NCBI GenBank assembly: GCA_005887895.1
Contig: VBPC01000272.1
Coordinates: forward strand, 5,561 to 69,560
Direction: 5' to 3'
DNA: 64,000 bases
From: Candidatus Rokuibacteriota bacterium
GTDB taxonomy: Bacteria; Methylomirabilota; Methylomirabilia; Rokubacteriales; CSP1-6
Both the position numbers and the translations under genes were made by a program. The notes below the pieces were generated by a model. That model saw only the letters and a list, made by a program, of their open reading frames with translations. It was not told where the DNA came from and made no database searches. This document shows positions 5,599-24,058 of this stretch, in pieces (the first letter of the stretch is position 1; the number at the start of each line of letters is the position of its first letter).

Positions 5599-5977
5599 GG
5601 AAGTTCTCCCCGGGATCGTGGTGGATGACCGTGCCGGGCCGCTGCCGCCGGCCTGCGGGGTGAACTATAGCACCGCTGTCGCGCTGGGCCCGGCTCCGGG
5701 CAGGAGGCGCTCGGAGGCTCCGCGGGCCGCTCGCGCGGCGCGCGAGCGGCCGCGGGCGGGTGACACTCGGCGGGCTGTGCGCGCTCCGGGCACGGCTCGA
5801 CGGCCGCGGAGGGCGCACGCTCCGTGTCGTTGACCGGTAACAGCGCGAAGAGGGCGACCACGAGCCACGGACCGGTGATGATCGCCACGGCGTCACTGCG
5901 AGGGCACGACCGGCGGCTGGCGGTTCTCGTTTGCGGTCCCGAAGCTCGGGACCGTCGGCCGGGAGTATAGTCCACTC

Positions 5978-6895
5978 GTGAACGCCTCCGTGACGCTCGG
6001 CGTGGCGATCCCTCAGACCTTCATCCACGAGCCGGTCGACGCCGGCCGGATCAAGGAATTCCTTCGCCACGCCGAGGCGCTGGGCTTCGCGAGCGCCTGG
6101 GTCGTCGAGCAGATCCTCGGCTCGGCGCCGAGCCTCGAGTCGGTCACGCTGCTCGCGTACGCGGCCGCGGTCACCGAGAGGCTGCGCCTGGGCTCGGCGG
6201 TGCTGCTCACGGCGCTGCGGAGTCCTGTGCACGTCGCCAAGAGCCTGGCCACCATCGACCAGCTCAGCCACGGCCGCCTGATCGTCGGCGTCGGGCTCGG
6301 CGGCAGTCCCAGGACGTATCCCGCCTACGGGCTCAGCGCCGAGCGTCGCGCCGCCCGGTTCGCCGAGGGGCTGCGGCTCGTGAAGCGACTGTGGACGGAG
6401 CCTCGCGTGACGATGGCCGGCGAGTTCTTCCGCCTGGAGAACGCCTCGATGGAACCGAAGCCCGTCCAGAAGCCGCATCCGCCGCTGTGGTTCGGCGGTC
6501 ACCATCCGCTGGCGCTCCGGCGCGCGGTCGAGCTGGGCGACGGTTTCATCGGGGCGGGCTCGGCGTCGACGGCGACGTTCGCCGACGAGGTCACGGCGTT
6601 GCGCGCGATCCTGGCCGAGCGGGGGCGGGCGGCGTTCCCGATCGGCAAGCGCGTCTACGTGGCGCTCGATCGCGACCGGTCGCGCGCGGGCAAGCGACTG
6701 GCCGAGTGGTTCGGCGCGTTCTACGGCAAGCCGGCGCTGGCCGAGGACGTCTCGGTGTTCGGCGACGCCGACGCCTGCGTCGAGGGCCTGCGCGCGGTCG
6801 TCGCCGCCGGCGCCGGCTTCCTGATGCTCAACCCCGTGTTCGACGAGCTCGACCAGCTCGAGCGGCTCGCCGCCGACGTCGCGCCCCGCCTCTGA
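5978..6895 (+). CDS. LLM-class (luciferase-like) flavin/F420-dependent oxidoreductase
   Basis: 305 aa. The segment GSAVLLTALRSPVHVAKSLATIDQLSHGRLIVGVGLG is typical of luciferase-like monooxygenases. A TATAGT box lies 6 nt upstream of the GTG start. Confidence 0.8.
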   Translation: MNASVTLGVAIPQTFIHEPVDAGRIKEFLRHAEALGFASAWVVEQILGSAPSLESVTLLAYAAAVTERLRLGSAVLLTALRSPVHVAKSLATIDQLSHGRLIVGVGLGGSPRTYPAYGLSAERRAARFAEGLRLVKRLWTEPRVTMAGEFFRLENASMEPKPVQKPHPPLWFGGHHPLALRRAVELGDGFIGAGSASTATFADEVTALRAILAERGRAAFPIGKRVYVALDRDRSRAGKRLAEWFGAFYGKPALAEDVSVFGDADACVEGLRAVVAAGAGFLMLNPVFDELDQLERLAADVAPRL

Positions 6896-7300: not shown

Positions 7301-7815
7301 TGCTGCTCTTCTCGAAGATCCTCCGCACCGGCCTGGCGACCGAGCCGCTGATCGCCGGCGACGACACCCTGCTGACGCTCGCCCGCGAGGTGGAGGCGCG
7401 CACCCGGCGGCTGCTCGGCCGGGCGCTGGCGATCCGCGAGGTCGACGCCGGCTCCTGCAACGGTTGCGAGCTGGAGATCACCGGGCTCATGAGTCCCGTG
7501 TACGACAGCGAGCGCTTCGGCATCCACTTCGTGGCCTCGCCGCGCCACGCCGACCTGCTGCTGGTCACCGGCCCGGTGACCCGCAACATGGAGGTGCCGC
7601 TGCGCAAGACGTGGGAGGCGACGCCCGATCCCAAGCTGGTCGTGGCCGTCGGCGACTGCGCGCGGACGTGCGGCGTCTTCCGCGGCAGCTACGCGATCGT
7701 CGGCAGCGTGGACGCCGTGGTGCCGGTCGACGTGTTCGTCGACGGCTGTCCGCCCGAGCCCGCCGACATCCTGCGCGGCATCCTGGCCGCGCTCGGCCGG
7801 CGGCCGGGACGCTGA
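7300..7815 (+). CDS. NuoB / group-4 hydrogenase small-subunit-like FeS protein
   Basis: 171 aa. Four Cys are spaced for one 4Fe-4S cluster: GSCNGCELE, GDCARTCG and VDGCPP. Confidence 0.85.
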   Translation: MLLFSKILRTGLATEPLIAGDDTLLTLAREVEARTRRLLGRALAIREVDAGSCNGCELEITGLMSPVYDSERFGIHFVASPRHADLLLVTGPVTRNMEVPLRKTWEATPDPKLVVAVGDCARTCGVFRGSYAIVGSVDAVVPVDVFVDGCPPEPADILRGILAALGRRPGR

Positions 7816-7828
7816 CCGCGGCGCGCCG

Positions 7829-18196: not shown

Positions 18197-18440
18197 GCGC
18201 GCATTGTACATAGCCGCCCGGCGCGGCATACTCGCCCGATGTGCGACCTGCCGGAGGCGGTGTCGTGACACGCTCGCGCACCGGATCGGCAGGACGCGCC
18301 GGGCGATCGCGCGCGCCCGCGGAGATGCGCGACCGCCGAGGAGATGCGCGACCGGATGATCCGCGACGGGGCGGACGCACGGACGAGTCGGGTACAATGA
18401 ACGAGTGTTCACTCCGAGATTAGCACCGTAAGGAGCCCGC

Positions 18441-19349
18441 ATGTTCGAGTCCGTCGAGGAGGTCCAGCAGCGGTTCAGGGACGCGCGGTACATCGCCAGC
18501 CGCCGCATTTCGACCGTCGTCTTCCTGGCCGCGCGGATGGGACGCCCGGTGCTGGTCGAAGGCCCGGCCGGCGTCGGCAAGACCGAGCTGGCCAAGACGC
18601 TGTCCGACGTCACCAGCCGCGGCCTCATCCGGCTGCAGTGCTACGAGGGGCTCGACGAGGGCAAGGCCCTCTACGAGTGGAAGTACGCCAAGCAGCTCCT
18701 CTACACGCAGCTCCTGCGCGAGCGCATCGGCGAGCTGATCGCCGACGCGCCGTCGCTGCCGGAGGCCGTGTCGCGCATCGCCGGCCAGGACGACGCGTTC
18801 TTCTCCTACCGGTTCCTGTCACCGCGGCCCCTGCTGCAGGCGATCCGCGCCGACGATCCGGTCGTGCTGCTGGTCGACGAGATCGACAAGGCCGAGCCGG
18901 AGTTCGAGGCGTTCTTGCTGGAAGTCCTCTCCGATTTCCAGGTGTCGATTCCGGAGCTCGGGACGGTGAAGGCGAAGCACGTTCCCCTGGTCGTCCTGAC
19001 CTCGAACAACGCCCGCGAGCTCAGCGACGGGCTCAAGCGCCGCTGCCTCCATCTGTTCATCGACTTTCCGACGCCGGCCGACGAGCTGGAGATCATCCGG
19101 CTGAAGGTGCCGGAGATCCCCGAGCGGCTGGCGCGCGCGGTCGTGGCGGCCGTGCAGAAGATCCGCGCGCTGGAGCTGCGCAAGCCGCCGTCGGTGTCGG
19201 AGTCGATCGACTGGGCGCGCTCGCTGGTGATCCTCAACGCCCGCGAGCTCGATCCCACGCTCGTCGAGTCCACGCTGACGTTGCTCGTGAAGTACGAAAA
19301 GGACATCGAACGCGTGCGGGGGGCGCTCGAGAAGGTCCTGGCGGAGTAA
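18441..19349 (+). CDS. MoxR-family AAA+ ATPase (CoxD-like)
   Basis: 302 aa. Walker A is GPAGVGKT and Walker B is [10 protein letters not shown]. An AAGGAG Shine-Dalgarno sequence precedes the ATG. Confidence 0.85.
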
Positions 19350-19350
19350 A

Positions 19351-20760
19351 ATGGAAGAACGGATCCTCGAGTTCATCGGCGACTTGCGGCGCGCCGAGCT
19401 CCGGATCTCCACGTCGGAGGCGCTCGATGCGCTGGCCGCCAGCGCCGAGGTCGGTCTCACTGACCGCGAGACGTTCAAGTCGACGCTGGCCGCGACCCTC
19501 GTCAAGGAGGCGCGCGACCACGAGACCTTCGACCGGATCTTCAACCTCTACTTCCTCGACCTCCAGGCGCTCGGCGAGGGCCTCAAGAAGGCGCTGGGGC
19601 CGGAGGATCCGAAGGTCCAGGAGCAGCTCGACCGGCTGGTGGACGAGGAGGGGCTCGACCTCGACGAGCTGACCGAGCTGCTCATGCGCGGGCAGGGCAG
19701 CGAGATGGAGATGGCCATTCGCGGCGGCGCCCAGGGCGCCGGCCTCGAGCGGCTCATGTACTTCCTGCAGGTCGGCTACTTCAGCCGCCGCATCGCCGAC
19801 CAGTTCGACTGGTCGGCGATCGAGGCCGACATCGAGAAGATCATGCAGGCGCTGGAGGCGCGCGGGCTCGATCCCGGCCAGCTCGCCCGCATCCGCAACT
19901 ACCTCGAGCTGCGGCTGGAGGCGTTCCGCCGGATGATCCGCCAGCACGTGCAGCGCGAGCTGGAGCGGCGGGCCTATCGCGCCGGCGAGCAGCTCACGCG
20001 CGAGGTCCTGGCCGACAAGCCGCTCTTCGCGCTGACGCCGGACGAGGTCGCCCAGATGAAGGGCGTGGTGGCCAAGCTGGCGCGCCGGATCAAGGACGCG
20101 CTGGCCCTGCGGCAGCGGCAGGAGCAGAAAGGGCGCATCGACTCCCGCCGCACGATCCGCAAGAGCCTGCAGTATGGCGGCGTGCCGATGGAGATCTACC
20201 TCAAGCGCCGGCACCGCGAGAAGCCGAAGCTCATCACGATCTGCGACGTGTCGGACTCGGTGCGCAATGCCTCCCGCTTCATGCTCCAGCTCGTGTGGAG
20301 CCTGCAGGAGTGCTTCAGCCGCGTGCGCTCCTACGTGTTCGTGTCGGAGATCGCCGAGGTGACCCAGGCCTTCGGCACCTATCCAGTCGAGCGGGCCATC
20401 GAGTGGGCCCTCAAGGGCGCGCCCGTCGACTACCATTGCCGGTCGGACTTCGGCTACGCGTTCAGCCGGTTCGCCAACACCGAGCTCGAGTCGCTCGACC
20501 GCAAGACGTCGATCCTCGTCCTCGGGGACGCCCGCAACAACTACAACGATCCGCAGGCCTGGGCGCTGCGGCTCATCCGAGAGCGCGTGAAGGGCATCAT
20601 CTGGCTCAATCCCGAGGGCCAGTGGGGCTGGGGCATCGGCGACAGCGTGATGCCGCTCTACGCACCGGCCTGCGACATCGTGCGCGAGTGCCGCACCGTC
20701 GGCCAGCTCGGCGAGGTGGTGGACAACCTCGTGCACCAGTGGTGGCGCCGGGGACGCTAG
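19351..20760 (+). CDS. VWA-domain protein, CoxE-like
   Basis: 469 aa, 1 nt after the MoxR stop. The C-terminal VWA-like region (ITICDVSDSV...LVLGDARNNY) is typical of CoxE-family partners of MoxR ATPases. Confidence 0.75.
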   Translation: MEERILEFIGDLRRAELRISTSEALDALAASAEVGLTDRETFKSTLAATLVKEARDHETFDRIFNLYFLDLQALGEGLKKALGPEDPKVQEQLDRLVDEEGLDLDELTELLMRGQGSEMEMAIRGGAQGAGLERLMYFLQVGYFSRRIADQFDWSAIEADIEKIMQALEARGLDPGQLARIRNYLELRLEAFRRMIRQHVQRELERRAYRAGEQLTREVLADKPLFALTPDEVAQMKGVVAKLARRIKDALALRQRQEQKGRIDSRRTIRKSLQYGGVPMEIYLKRRHREKPKLITICDVSDSVRNASRFMLQLVWSLQECFSRVRSYVFVSEIAEVTQAFGTYPVERAIEWALKGAPVDYHCRSDFGYAFSRFANTELESLDRKTSILVLGDARNNYNDPQAWALRLIRERVKGIIWLNPEGQWGWGIGDSVMPLYAPACDIVRECRTVGQLGEVVDNLVHQWWRRGR

Positions 20761-20761
20761 G

Positions 20762-21487
20762 GTGCCGGCGGCGCACGCGCTGGCCCGAGGCTTGCTCTGT
20801 CTCGATCGTGTGCGCGTCCTGGTTCTGCTCGCGCTGCTCGCCGCCGCCGGCCTGGCCTTCGCCCAGGCCGCGCAACCTGCTGCCCAGGACGATTGCATCG
20901 TCCTCGACGATTTCTCGAAGTCCAGGGTCGGCGAGTTTCCCGCCGGCTGGGAGGCCCGCAAGAGCGAGGGCAAGAGCGTCTACACCGTGCAGGAGAACGG
21001 CGGCAAGCGCTTCCTGCGCGCCGTGTCCAAGGGCCTCGGCATCCAGGCCGCGCGCGAGACGCCCAACTGGGACCTCGCGACCCATCCGGTGCTGGCGTGG
21101 TCGTGGCGGCCGCGGCAGTTTCCCCAGGGCGCCGACGAGCGGAAGTCGTCGCTGAACGACAGCGCGCTCGCCGTCTACATGGGCGTGCCGTACTCCAAGG
21201 TGCGCGGCCCCAAGGCGATGAAGTACGTCTGGAGCGAGAAGGTCCCGGTCGGCACGCGCCTGACCTCCAACAGCAACCTCACCCAGGTGCACGTGCTCAG
21301 GAGCGGCGCCCCGGCGTCGCCGGATGCGTGGACCCAGGAGCGGGTCAACGTGCTGACCGAGTGGAAGGCCGCGTTCAAGGAGTCCGACACGCCGAAGGTG
21401 GTCGGCATCGCGGTCCTCACCGACGCCGACGACACGAAGTCGTCCGCGGCCGGCGACTACGCCGATTTTCGAGCCTGCCGCGGCTAG
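20762..21487 (+). CDS. Secreted DUF3047-like protein
   Basis: 241 aa with a signal peptide. The blocks LAWSWRPRQFP, NDSALAVYMG, MKYVWSEKVPVG and AVLTDADDTKSSAAGDYADF match my recollection of DUF3047. Confidence 0.55.
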   Translation: MPAAHALARGLLCLDRVRVLVLLALLAAAGLAFAQAAQPAAQDDCIVLDDFSKSRVGEFPAGWEARKSEGKSVYTVQENGGKRFLRAVSKGLGIQAARETPNWDLATHPVLAWSWRPRQFPQGADERKSSLNDSALAVYMGVPYSKVRGPKAMKYVWSEKVPVGTRLTSNSNLTQVHVLRSGAPASPDAWTQERVNVLTEWKAAFKESDTPKVVGIAVLTDADDTKSSAAGDYADFRACRG

Positions 21488-21496
21488 GCTCTCCCG

Positions 21497-22468
21497 CTAC
21501 GTTCCCATCCCGGCGGGTGGAATGCCCGCGCACGGGTCGCCGTCGTCCGTGCGCGGCGTGAACCAGACCCAGTCGAACGGCAGCGCGCCGTCGAAGGCCG
21601 CCGCGTAGTCCGGCGGCCGCGTCCAGCCCTCGCGCACCTCCAGCGGCGCCACCACCGCGATGCGCGCGCCCGGCTCGCGACCGCGCAGGTAGATCGGCAC
21701 GCCGCGGTCCTCGCGCACGTGGCCGAGGCCGGCGATGAGCACGCCGCCGTCGCGGTCGGCGGCCAGCAGGCTGTCGGTGAGCATGGCGTCGCGCGCGCGC
21801 TGGGCGAGGACCATCGTTTCCACGCGTCCGGCCGGCAGGCGACCGCAGTGCGCCTCGGCCAGCTCGGCCGTCAGCCGCGCGTGCGCGGCCGGCGCCATCG
21901 GCTGGTCGAGCGCGTACCGTGCGGCGAGCCCGGCGGGCACGGCGCCCGCCTCGCCGCGGGCGATCGAGCGCACCGTGGCCGGCGCCAGGTTGGCGGCGAC
22001 CAGCGGCACGCCGGCCTCGAGCGCGGCCTGGGCGATCGGCCGGTAGTACGCCCAGTCCGGCCAGCCGGAGTGTTTCCAGTCGACCGCCTCGGCGAGCCCG
22101 GCGGCGTCGCGCGGGGCGGCGGCGAGATGCCGCGCGATGAGCGGCGCCTGATCGGCGGTGAACATCTCGAAGGCGACGGCCGGTCGTCGACCGGTGCCGA
22201 GCAGCGAGCGCACCAGCGCGGCCTGGATCTGGTGGTGATCGGGGTTGTCGTGCTTCTCGCCGAGCAGCACGTAGCGGGCGGTGGCGAGGCGGGCGACGAC
22301 CGCGTCGGCCTCGACGAAACGCGCGCGGCGCACGTCCCAGATCCGCCCGGTGAGTGGATGCTCGCGCCCGAGCGGCGCCCGCCACGGCCCGAGCCCCGTG
22401 TCGACCCAGCGCGCACAGCCGGCGGCCAGGAGCGCGATCACGAGCACGCACCGCACGCCGGGCCCCAT
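21497..22468 (-). CDS. ChaN-family (DUF399/Tiki-like) lipoprotein
   Basis: 323 aa with an LLAAGC lipobox. YVLLGEKHDNPDHHQIQA and the AFEMF motif are typical of ChaN-like proteins. Confidence 0.65.
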   Translation of the reverse strand: MGPGVRCVLVIALLAAGCARWVDTGLGPWRAPLGREHPLTGRIWDVRRARFVEADAVVARLATARYVLLGEKHDNPDHHQIQAALVRSLLGTGRRPAVAFEMFTADQAPLIARHLAAAPRDAAGLAEAVDWKHSGWPDWAYYRPIAQAALEAGVPLVAANLAPATVRSIARGEAGAVPAGLAARYALDQPMAPAAHARLTAELAEAHCGRLPAGRVETMVLAQRARDAMLTDSLLAADRDGGVLIAGLGHVREDRGVPIYLRGREPGARIAVVAPLEVREGWTRPPDYAAAFDGALPFDWVWFTPRTDDGDPCAGIPPAGMGT

Positions 22469-22502
22469 GCCGCCAGCATACGCGCTGTGTTAGCCTCAGC
22501 GC

Positions 22503-23540
22503 ATGGCGCTCGCCGGAACCGACCCGATCGAGGAGCTCTACGCGCGCGGCGTGACCGACGGCCTGCCGGTGGTGCCGCCCACGCGCGAGCGGGTCGCGCG
22601 CGCCGTCGAGGCCACGGGCCGCGCCGCCGCCGAGCTGATCGCCGAGGTGCCGCCCAACTACGGCCGCGCCACCGTCGAGAAGATCGCGATCAACGCGGTC
22701 ATGGCGGGGTGCCGGCCCGATTACCTGCCGGTCGTGATCGCGGCGGTGGAGGCGGTGTGCGACGACGCGTTCGACCTGCACGGCGTCTCGGCGACGACCA
22801 ACGCGCCGGCGCCGCTGATCGTCGTCAACGGGCCGATCCGCCACCGCCTGGACATCAACTGCGGCGCCGGGCTCTTCGGACCCGGCTGGCGCGCCAACGC
22901 GACGATCGGCCGCGCCCTGCGCCTCGTCTGCGTCAACGTCGGCGGCGCCCGGCCCGGCGTCGTCAGCATGTCGACGTTCGCGCATCCCGGCCGCTACACC
23001 TACTGCATCGGCGAACGCGAGGAGGCCAGCCCATGGGACTCGCTGGCGGTGGAGCACGGCTTCGCGGCCGGCGACGACACCGTGGCCCTGCTGGCGGCCG
23101 ACGCGCCGATCACCGTGTACGACCAGCGCAGCCGCACCGCGCCCGACCTCTGCGCGACGCTGGCCGCCACGCTGGCCGTGATCGAGCATCACAAGATGAC
23201 GCACTGGGGCGACACGCTGCTCGTGCTGTCGCCCGAGCACGCGGCGATCGTGGCCGGCGACGGCTGGGGCAAGGCCGACGTGCGGCGCTTCCTGTTCGAG
23301 CGCCTGCACCGGCCCGTCCACGAGCTGGTGCCCGGCGTGAACGGCGGCGACGGCCTGCCCGAGCACGTGCTGCGCAAGTTCGCCGACCCCGCGCACGACG
23401 CGACGCCGATCCCGAAGTTCCGCAAGCCCGAGCACCTCAAGATCGTCGTGGCCGGCGGCAGCGCCGGCCGGTTCTCGGCGGTGGTGCCGGGCTGGACGTT
23501 CTCCAAGGGCTCGAACCTGGTGCTGAGGAGGATCCGATGA
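22503..23540 (+). CDS. Conserved hypothetical protein, translationally coupled to the UGSC selenoprotein gene
   Basis: 345 aa, GC3-rich. I recognise no family. There is an ATGA overlap with the next gene. Confidence 0.7.
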   Translation: MALAGTDPIEELYARGVTDGLPVVPPTRERVARAVEATGRAAAELIAEVPPNYGRATVEKIAINAVMAGCRPDYLPVVIAAVEAVCDDAFDLHGVSATTNAPAPLIVVNGPIRHRLDINCGAGLFGPGWRANATIGRALRLVCVNVGGARPGVVSMSTFAHPGRYTYCIGEREEASPWDSLAVEHGFAAGDDTVALLAADAPITVYDQRSRTAPDLCATLAATLAVIEHHKMTHWGDTLLVLSPEHAAIVAGDGWGKADVRRFLFERLHRPVHELVPGVNGGDGLPEHVLRKFADPAHDATPIPKFRKPEHLKIVVAGGSAGRFSAVVPGWTFSKGSNLVLRRIR

Positions 23541-24058
23541 CCGAGTATCTCGATCCCACCGACTCCGTCGCGGTCCCACGCAAGACGGCGCCGCGGCCGG
23601 CCAGCCTCGACGGCAAGGTCGTGACGCTGCTCGACATCTCGAAGGCCAAGGGCGACCATCTGCTGGACCGCGTGGAGGAGCTGCTGCGCGAGCGCGCCGG
23701 CGTGAAGACCATCGTGCGCAAGAAGAAGCCGACCTTCGCCCGCCCGGCGCCGGACCCGCTGCGCCAGGAGATCGTCGGCGCCACCGACGTGCTCGTCGAG
23801 GGTCTCGCCGATTGAGGGTCGTGCACAACGTGCAGTGTGCACGACGGCGTGTTCTTCGAGGACCACGGGATTCCCACCGCGACGGTGATCTCCAGCGAGT
23901 TCGTCCGGGCGGCGGCCGCCCAGGCCCAGGCCCTCGGCGCCGGCGACTACAAGACGGTCGTCGTGGCGCATCCGATCCAGCCGCTCACTCGCGAGGAGGT
24001 GCGCGCGCTCGCCGACAAGGCCTTCGACGACATCGTGGCACGGCTGACCCGGCGGTGA
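23537..24058 (+). CDS. UGSC-family selenoprotein (in-frame UGA 23813-23815 read as selenocysteine)
   Basis: 92 codons, then TGA, then 80 further in-frame GC3-rich codons up to TGA 24056-24058. The local sequence is LAD-U-GSCTTC (a U-x-x-C motif). A perfect hairpin follows the UGA. The total of 173 aa fits the family size I recall. Confidence 0.75.
23818..23845 (+). promoter_or_regulatory. Candidate bacterial SECIS hairpin
   Basis: The stem gtcgtgcac (23818-23826) pairs perfectly with gtgcacgac (23837-23845), and the loop is aacgtgcagt. The hairpin starts at the third nucleotide after the in-frame UGA. Confidence 0.6.

Follow-up and report, generated by a model that had tools for sequence, protein, structure and literature searches.

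Comparative sequence evidence indicates that the gene at positions 23537–24058 on the forward strand of a 64,000-nucleotide stretch of Candidatus Rokuibacteriota DNA (contig VBPC01000272.1; 72% GC; hereafter the window, whose numbering is used for all positions) is a real selenocysteine-encoding gene and an ordinary member of the already catalogued UGSC family. Its 173 codons include an in-frame UGA at codon 93 that is followed by a small, family-conserved hairpin, and it lies immediately downstream of a partner gene coding for an unnamed protein of 345 amino acids (aa). We hold with high confidence the proposal as a whole, namely that this UGSC selenoprotein is made by means of the small hairpin and would act as a redox subunit together with the product of its partner gene.

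The gene starts at ATG 23537–23539, which overlaps the stop codon of the upstream gene (TGA 23538–23540) as ATGA, and a Shine-Dalgarno motif, GAGGAGGA (23525–23532, forward strand), can be read directly from the sequence, ending 4 nt upstream of the start. The frame meets a TGA at 23813–23815 and then stays open for 80 more codons until TGA 24056–24058, so that the joined product, which reads ...VEGLAD-[TGA]-GSCTTCSVHD... around the internal codon, amounts to 92 + 1 + 80 = 173 aa. Translation and alignment of related loci delimit a U-G-S-C-T-T-C redox motif (UxxCxxC) at 23813–23833. An earlier inspection of this DNA, made without database searches (the sequence-only reading), had described the start with its ATGA coupling, both TGA codons, the U-x-x-C motif in LAD-[UGA]-GSCTTC and a coding composition continuing across the internal TGA, all of which are indeed present. 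When both strands of the window were scanned for TGA codons flanked on each side by 40 open codons of coding-type composition (GC content at third codon positions of at least 0.85), the TGA at 23813 was the only one found in the 64 kb. A looser scan added a single site, the ordinary stop at a gene end, and neither scan revealed another credible in-frame TGA that would point to a second selenoprotein in the window.

Searched with Cys substituted for selenocysteine (Sec), the joined product matches the NCBIfam model NF041046, “UGSC family (seleno)protein”, with 162.9 bits against a cut-off of 125 (profile positions 1–147 of 147), and the Pfam model PF24696, ‘UGSC’, with 177.4 bits against a cut-off of 25 (model positions 2–171 of 172). 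Each model spans both halves of the product, and the family that the sequence-only reading had named is thus the right one; a Methylomirabilia protein with 62% identity already carries the NCBI name ‘UGSC family (seleno)protein’. A search of 5.8 billion proteins returned mostly fragments of 94–95 aa ending in ...LAD, which correspond to genes cut at the same TGA, chiefly in Rokubacteria/Methylomirabilota, together with a small number of full-length Cys forms. When one genome per species was scanned, 480 relatives emerged, the best 80 of which (L001–L080) were used for locus counts. The aligned codon is TGA in every one of these 80 loci. At least six phyla are represented, with copies from Rokuibacteriota, Binatia, Dehalococcoidia, Rhodobacterales, Actinomycetota and Gammaproteobacteria, among others, and the window gene is 92% identical to the copy in a public metagenome-assembled genome (L001). 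The rare Cys forms (P0248, P0249, P0105 and P0109) read ADCGSC, their redox Cys aligning with the Sec position, and the Cys orthologues L081 and L087 have TGC at this codon; homologues spanning both halves, with either Cys or TGA at the critical position, thus bear out the joined product.

The window gene shows no substantive difference from the rest of the family, with which it shares the U-G-S-C motif, the length and the position of Sec, and can be regarded as its Rokubacteria/Methylomirabilota copy. The family has appeared in lists of selenoproteins, as the ‘UGSC-containing protein’ of unassigned function, since 2007 (Zhang and Gladyshev, PMC1976440), and reviews from 2022 and 2026 still term the family uncharacterised (PMC9312934, PMC13188914). 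In the Global Ocean Sampling data it ranked with the most abundant selenoprotein families, and Sec forms outnumbered Cys forms there by 255 to 21 (PMC2398784), a preponderance of Sec similar to the one that we observe; the same 2008 paper reported a UGSC fusion to a domain named ‘Unknown_1’.

Two mutually exclusive stems can form just downstream of the UGA, and they have a common 3′ arm, UGCACG(AC). To compare them, we relied on an alignment (A2) of 66-nt segments surrounding the TGA, taken from the window and the 80 loci and comprising 78 distinct sequences. The smaller hairpin (23829–23843, forward strand) pairs CGUGCA with UGCACG around a GUG loop (23835–23837), or, in an alternative reading, has 5 bp and the loop A-G-U-G-U. 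It starts 13 nt past the UGA, with a spacing of 19 nt between UGA and loop, and all 78 distinct sequences maintain the pairing of its 5-bp core. Sites G24, C27, G29 and T30 of A2, which belong to this hairpin, are invariant or nearly so although changes there would be synonymous: G is without exception the last base of the Thr/Ser codon, 80 of 81 sequences have TGC as the Cys codon, and the next codon always ends in T, the Ser found there in 93% of sequences being always encoded by AGT despite the high GC content. At codons 98–101, third-position entropy is 0.0–0.1 bit against a gene mean of 1.41, and the six-codon stretch that begins at codon 98 (98–103) has the least synonymous variability of the whole gene. 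In the two Cys orthologues for which DNA was available (L081 and L087), a remnant of the stem is kept, the loop codon is ACG or GCU and the G-U is lost.

These properties can be compared with the consensus of bSECISearch for the bacterial selenocysteine insertion sequence (SECIS), which describes a loop of 3–9 nt, a stem of 4–16 bp, 16–37 nt between UGA and loop, a G within the first two loop bases, in most cases with G or U after it, and a free energy no higher than −7.5 kcal/mol (PMC13188914). The small hairpin agrees with the rules for loop, stem, G and spacing, while its free energy, −7.4 kcal/mol, falls marginally outside the energy limit. Like known bacterial SECIS elements, it is located inside the coding sequence just past the UGA and has an apical loop of 3–5 nt with G then U, but it differs from them in being very short (5–6 bp in the window, up to 8 bp in actinobacterial copies), in having no lower stem and in being overlapped, in the Rokubacteria lineage, by the longer exclusive stem. 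We interpret it as the probable SelB-binding element, and the long stem as a likely lineage-specific by-product that stems from the repeated S-C-T / T-C-S coding sequence.

The long stem (23818–23845, forward strand) is the one that the sequence-only reading had noticed. It is certainly present as a perfect 9-bp pairing of GUCGUGCAC (23818–23826) with GUGCACGAC (23837–23845) around a 10-nt loop, or with an extra A-U pair as 10 bp with an 8-nt loop, and one may ask whether it is itself the functional SECIS in the lineage of the window. It is the most stable local structure (−15.6 kcal/mol against −7.4 kcal/mol for the small hairpin), it prevails in the fold predicted for the free RNA, and it is intact in about half of the Rokubacteria relatives. 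Perfect 9-bp stems with loops of 3–12 nt are rare in the window, beginning at 53 positions, and about 0.017 would be expected per given 20 nt. The 66-nt region, however, has a folding energy that is unremarkable for DNA with 72% GC (z = −0.83, with 41 of 200 shuffles folding as well); because this energy is not unusual, the long stem taken alone is weak evidence. Its pair 15–36 is broken in 48 and its pair 12–39 in 37 of the 78 distinct sequences, and the Ser codon at its centre, codon 95, is free at its third position (G/C/T/A = 29/41/6/5). It also departs from the bacterial model, its first two loop bases being A-A (or A-C) without G, its spacing 11–12 nt and its loop, as drawn, 10 nt long. 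The conserved element is the smaller hairpin, and a SECIS role for the long stem, lineage-specific and at odds with the bacterial model, appears unlikely to us. Ribosome footprints in general indicate that, with the UGA in the A site, the 5′ arm of the long stem, 3–11 nt past the UGA, is probably inside the mRNA channel; the small hairpin would then be free to form at the moment of decoding.

Much less probable still is that TGA 23813 is a true stop, the apparent gene being a pseudogene, the result of an error in sequencing or a pair of small genes for products of 92 and 73 aa. Gene callers do produce these two fragments, as the sequence-only reading had anticipated: on contigs with an identical 345-aa neighbour and the same gene order, public calls split the gene exactly into products of 92 and 73 aa, GTG 23837 could start the second piece, and the window contains no sel genes. 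One contig with this neighbour and gene order is a 42-kb scaffold in ENA assembly ERZ28573607. Yet both fragments match PF24696, the identical split recurs in three independent assemblies encoding the identical neighbour, and the family's most conserved peptide is encoded by the seven codons that separate the TGA from the GTG. Coding-type substitutions also run past the TGA. Within the Rokubacteria clade, differences at codon positions 1/2/3 number 156/106/457 after the TGA, with 350 synonymous against 214 non-synonymous codon changes, the same pattern as before it (169/116/377), and this codon-position periodicity is not seen beyond the final stop. Finally, the Cys orthologues are each one polypeptide covering both halves, as do the Pfam and NCBIfam models. 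Since the TGA is conserved across phyla, coding-type substitutions continue beyond it and the code is not reassigned, the sequence comparisons exclude the pseudogene, sequencing-error and two-gene readings for practical purposes.

The reading of UGA as an ordinary amino acid (Trp, Cys or Gly), through a reassigned code or near-cognate decoding, has a negligible likelihood in our view: one database entry (P0019) does translate the codon as W and the Sec machinery of the source genome was not seen, but TGA is the commonest stop among the other coding-type open reading frames (ORFs) of the window, which means that UGA is not reassigned here, the Sec position aligns with a redox Cys, an RNA element downstream of the UGA is under purifying selection, and selA, selB and tRNA-Sec are linked to the UGSC gene in other genomes.

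This linkage emerged when the ORFs on either side of the module in the 80 related loci were clustered. In 12 of them (L039, L040, L042, L044, L046, L048, L049, L053, L054, L061, L062 and L067), selA and selB adjoin the partner-UGSC pair (Pfam SelA match of 472 bits; SelB domains), and ARAGORN detected tRNA-Sec with anticodon TCA in 9 of these 12. The order is selA-selB-selC-partner-UGSC in Sulfitobacter/Roseobacter relatives and partner-UGSC-selA-selB in gamma- and betaproteobacterial loci. A metagenome-assembled genome of the Methylomirabilota has been predicted to carry 63 genes for selenoproteins (2026 review, PMC13188914).

The most constant neighbour of UGSC is the partner gene (22503–23540, forward strand; 345 aa), whose stop overlaps the UGSC start in the window. 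It is found directly upstream in 79 of the 80 loci, with 43–90% identity and intergenic gaps mostly between −4 and +30 nt. As every other neighbour is common to at most 18 of 81 loci, the conserved unit is a two-gene pair. The sole locus lacking the upstream partner is that of Rokubacteria GWA2_70_23 (L006), where a different ORF ends at that place (5700–6000). Two Binatia-type loci have a second partner copy, in tandem in L030 (3791–5958) and about 5 kb downstream in L033 (4918–5949 and 11347–12375). In L081 (759–5564), a Cys orthologue of UGSC keeps a long partner, also with an ATGA overlap, downstream of a TRAP transporter operon (DctP, DctQ, DctM).

The partner has no match in Pfam, NCBIfam or PDB, even at E ≤ 10 and, for PDB, also with a partner profile. 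It has at least 7930 homologues, and the 120 that were listed carry no Pfam domain and are all named only ‘hypothetical protein’. Among 74 sequences, H93 and H246 are conserved in 74, C70 in 72, C168 in 69 and C86 in 62. In 40 of the 45 loci L036–L080, from Dehalococcoidia, Rhodobacterales, Actinomycetota, Gammaproteobacteria and others, the partner has about 100–160 extra N-terminal residues with a C-x-x-C motif followed by PGCG. One of these long partners passes the AhpC-TSA cut-off (30.1 bits against 26), from which we take the extra region to be a thioredoxin-fold domain. The partner of the window and those of its close relatives are devoid of this N-terminal CxxC domain, and no separate gene for a thioredoxin-fold/PGCG domain was found in the window or in the Rokubacteria and Binatia loci. 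Foldseek matches of the modelled partner to class I fumarate hydratase and to SelD/ThiL-like proteins had template modelling scores (TM-scores) below 0.3 and were treated as noise.

For the Sec protein itself, a PDB sequence search gave nothing meaningful, and its fold was modelled with AlphaFold2 on the Cys orthologue P0248. This model (predicted local distance difference test, pLDDT, 82) has five beta-alpha units; the Sec position falls in the loop that joins strand 3 to helix 3, and the two Cys belong to the opening turns of helix 3. Its best Foldseek matches in PDB are flavodoxin-like (TIR, flavodoxin, CpaE receiver-like, PTS IIB and lumazine synthase). A thioredoxin-like fold was suggested for UGSC in 2008 (PMC2398784). 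The model does not support this suggestion, since it consists of five beta-alpha units and looks flavodoxin-like, and no thioredoxin, peroxiredoxin or glutaredoxin occurs among its 50 best PDB matches. The location of the UxxC centre at a strand-to-helix junction in the model fits a selenol/thiol redox role. UGSC thus resembles the UxxC/CxxU selenoproteins with thioredoxin fold (thioredoxin-like, peroxiredoxin-like and SelW-like) in having Sec and Cys two residues apart at a strand-to-helix junction and in its presumed thiol/selenol redox role, but it differs from them in its predicted fold, its third Cys (UxxCxxC) and its dedicated partner gene of an unnamed family.

Some Cys paralogues (P0105 and P0109) possess a 23-aa Cys-rich insert, and their genes stand between those of a Fer4_11 4Fe-4S protein and a 948-aa molybdopterin oxidoreductase. 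Such genes occur, without the partner gene, in L082 (3058–7702), L083 (1511–6155) and the contig of P0105. These forms are a paralogous use of the UGSC domain, and they point to electron transfer.

From this comparative evidence, we propose that during translation the small hairpin, with its G-U loop, would recruit SelB and Sec-tRNA(Sec), and that UGA 23813 would then be decoded as selenocysteine instead of stop. The product would be a five-fold beta-alpha, flavodoxin-like domain, with Sec93 at the end of strand 3 and Cys96 and Cys99 on the first turns of the following helix. Such a UxxC geometry is usual for a redox-active centre and would allow cycling between selenol/thiol and selenenylsulfide. 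Most likely, UGSC would form a two-gene module with the upstream 345-aa protein and act in it as the redox subunit that contains selenium. In this module, a redox relay might run through the UxxC centre, the conserved Cys of the partner and, in those partners that have it, the CxxC domain.

Several observations weigh against this proposal. The conserved hairpin is small, and its energy of −7.4 kcal/mol lies right at the limit of −7.5 that the published model sets. Covariation in it is nearly absent, with two pairs showing one double change each and shuffles equalling it on most measures; as the stem barely varies, covariation is uninformative here, and synonymous-site conservation was used instead. 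Rfam contains no SECIS or other match, neither for the window at gathering score nor for 23700–23950 at E ≤ 10. As already stated in the sequence-only reading, no sel genes are visible in the window: tblastn retrieved no SelA or SelB homologue in the 64 kb, the only tRNA is tRNA-Met and not tRNA-Sec, and none of the approximately 45 ORFs scanned has a sel-family Pfam match. On the structural side, the fold comes from a Cys orthologue only 44% identical to the window protein that it stands for, and its Foldseek probabilities near 1 go together with TM-scores of only 0.40–0.47. The AlphaFold2 model of the partner, built from a shallow alignment, is unreliable (pLDDT 59), and the putative role of the partner, as well as any contact with UGSC, is deduced solely from gene adjacency.

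The rest of the window includes some other features. Just upstream of the partner gene, a divergent gene (21497–22489, reverse strand) codes for a ChaN-like haem-binding protein, and before it come in a row genes for an AAA ATPase, a VWA CoxE/MadC-like protein and a DUF3047 protein (18432–21487, forward strand). The AAA ATPase, VWA, DUF3047 and ChaN-like genes also flank the module in the close relatives L084–L086. Further upstream, 7580–14506 (forward strand) is a run of Mrp/Nuo-type membrane subunits (Proton_antipo_M, NADHdh) that ends with a fused NuoC/NuoD-like (HycE-like) protein (12938–14506) and looks like a hydrogenase-related complex without NiFe site. That last ORF was considered as a [NiFeSe] hydrogenase subunit and rejected, as it has no Ni-binding cysteines and ends in TAG. 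An ORF at 15004–15711 (forward strand) matches the collagen triple-helix repeat (PF01391, E = 4e-15), in a region (14500–16200) without clear coding-frame signal.

The immediate consequence concerns annotation: what is called as two ‘hypothetical’ fragments, of 92 and 73 aa, is in fact a single selenoprotein, and its presence would imply that UGA is read as selenocysteine in this organism. The family to which it belongs counts among the most abundant selenoprotein families of aquatic metagenomes, and its function is still unassigned (PMC2398784, PMC13188914). The near-obligatory unnamed partner, the fusion of this partner to a CxxC thioredoxin-fold domain in other phyla and the linkage to selA-selB-selC in some genomes provide handles on that function. 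More speculatively, UGSC and its partner might constitute a widespread two-subunit selenoenzyme of an undescribed kind, with the partner as catalytic subunit (Cys70, His93, His246), a possibility to which we give only tentative credence. If true, and because selA-selB-selC directly adjoin the pair in Rhodobacterales, this module could be one of the main reasons for which the selenocysteine trait persists in many aerobic bacteria.

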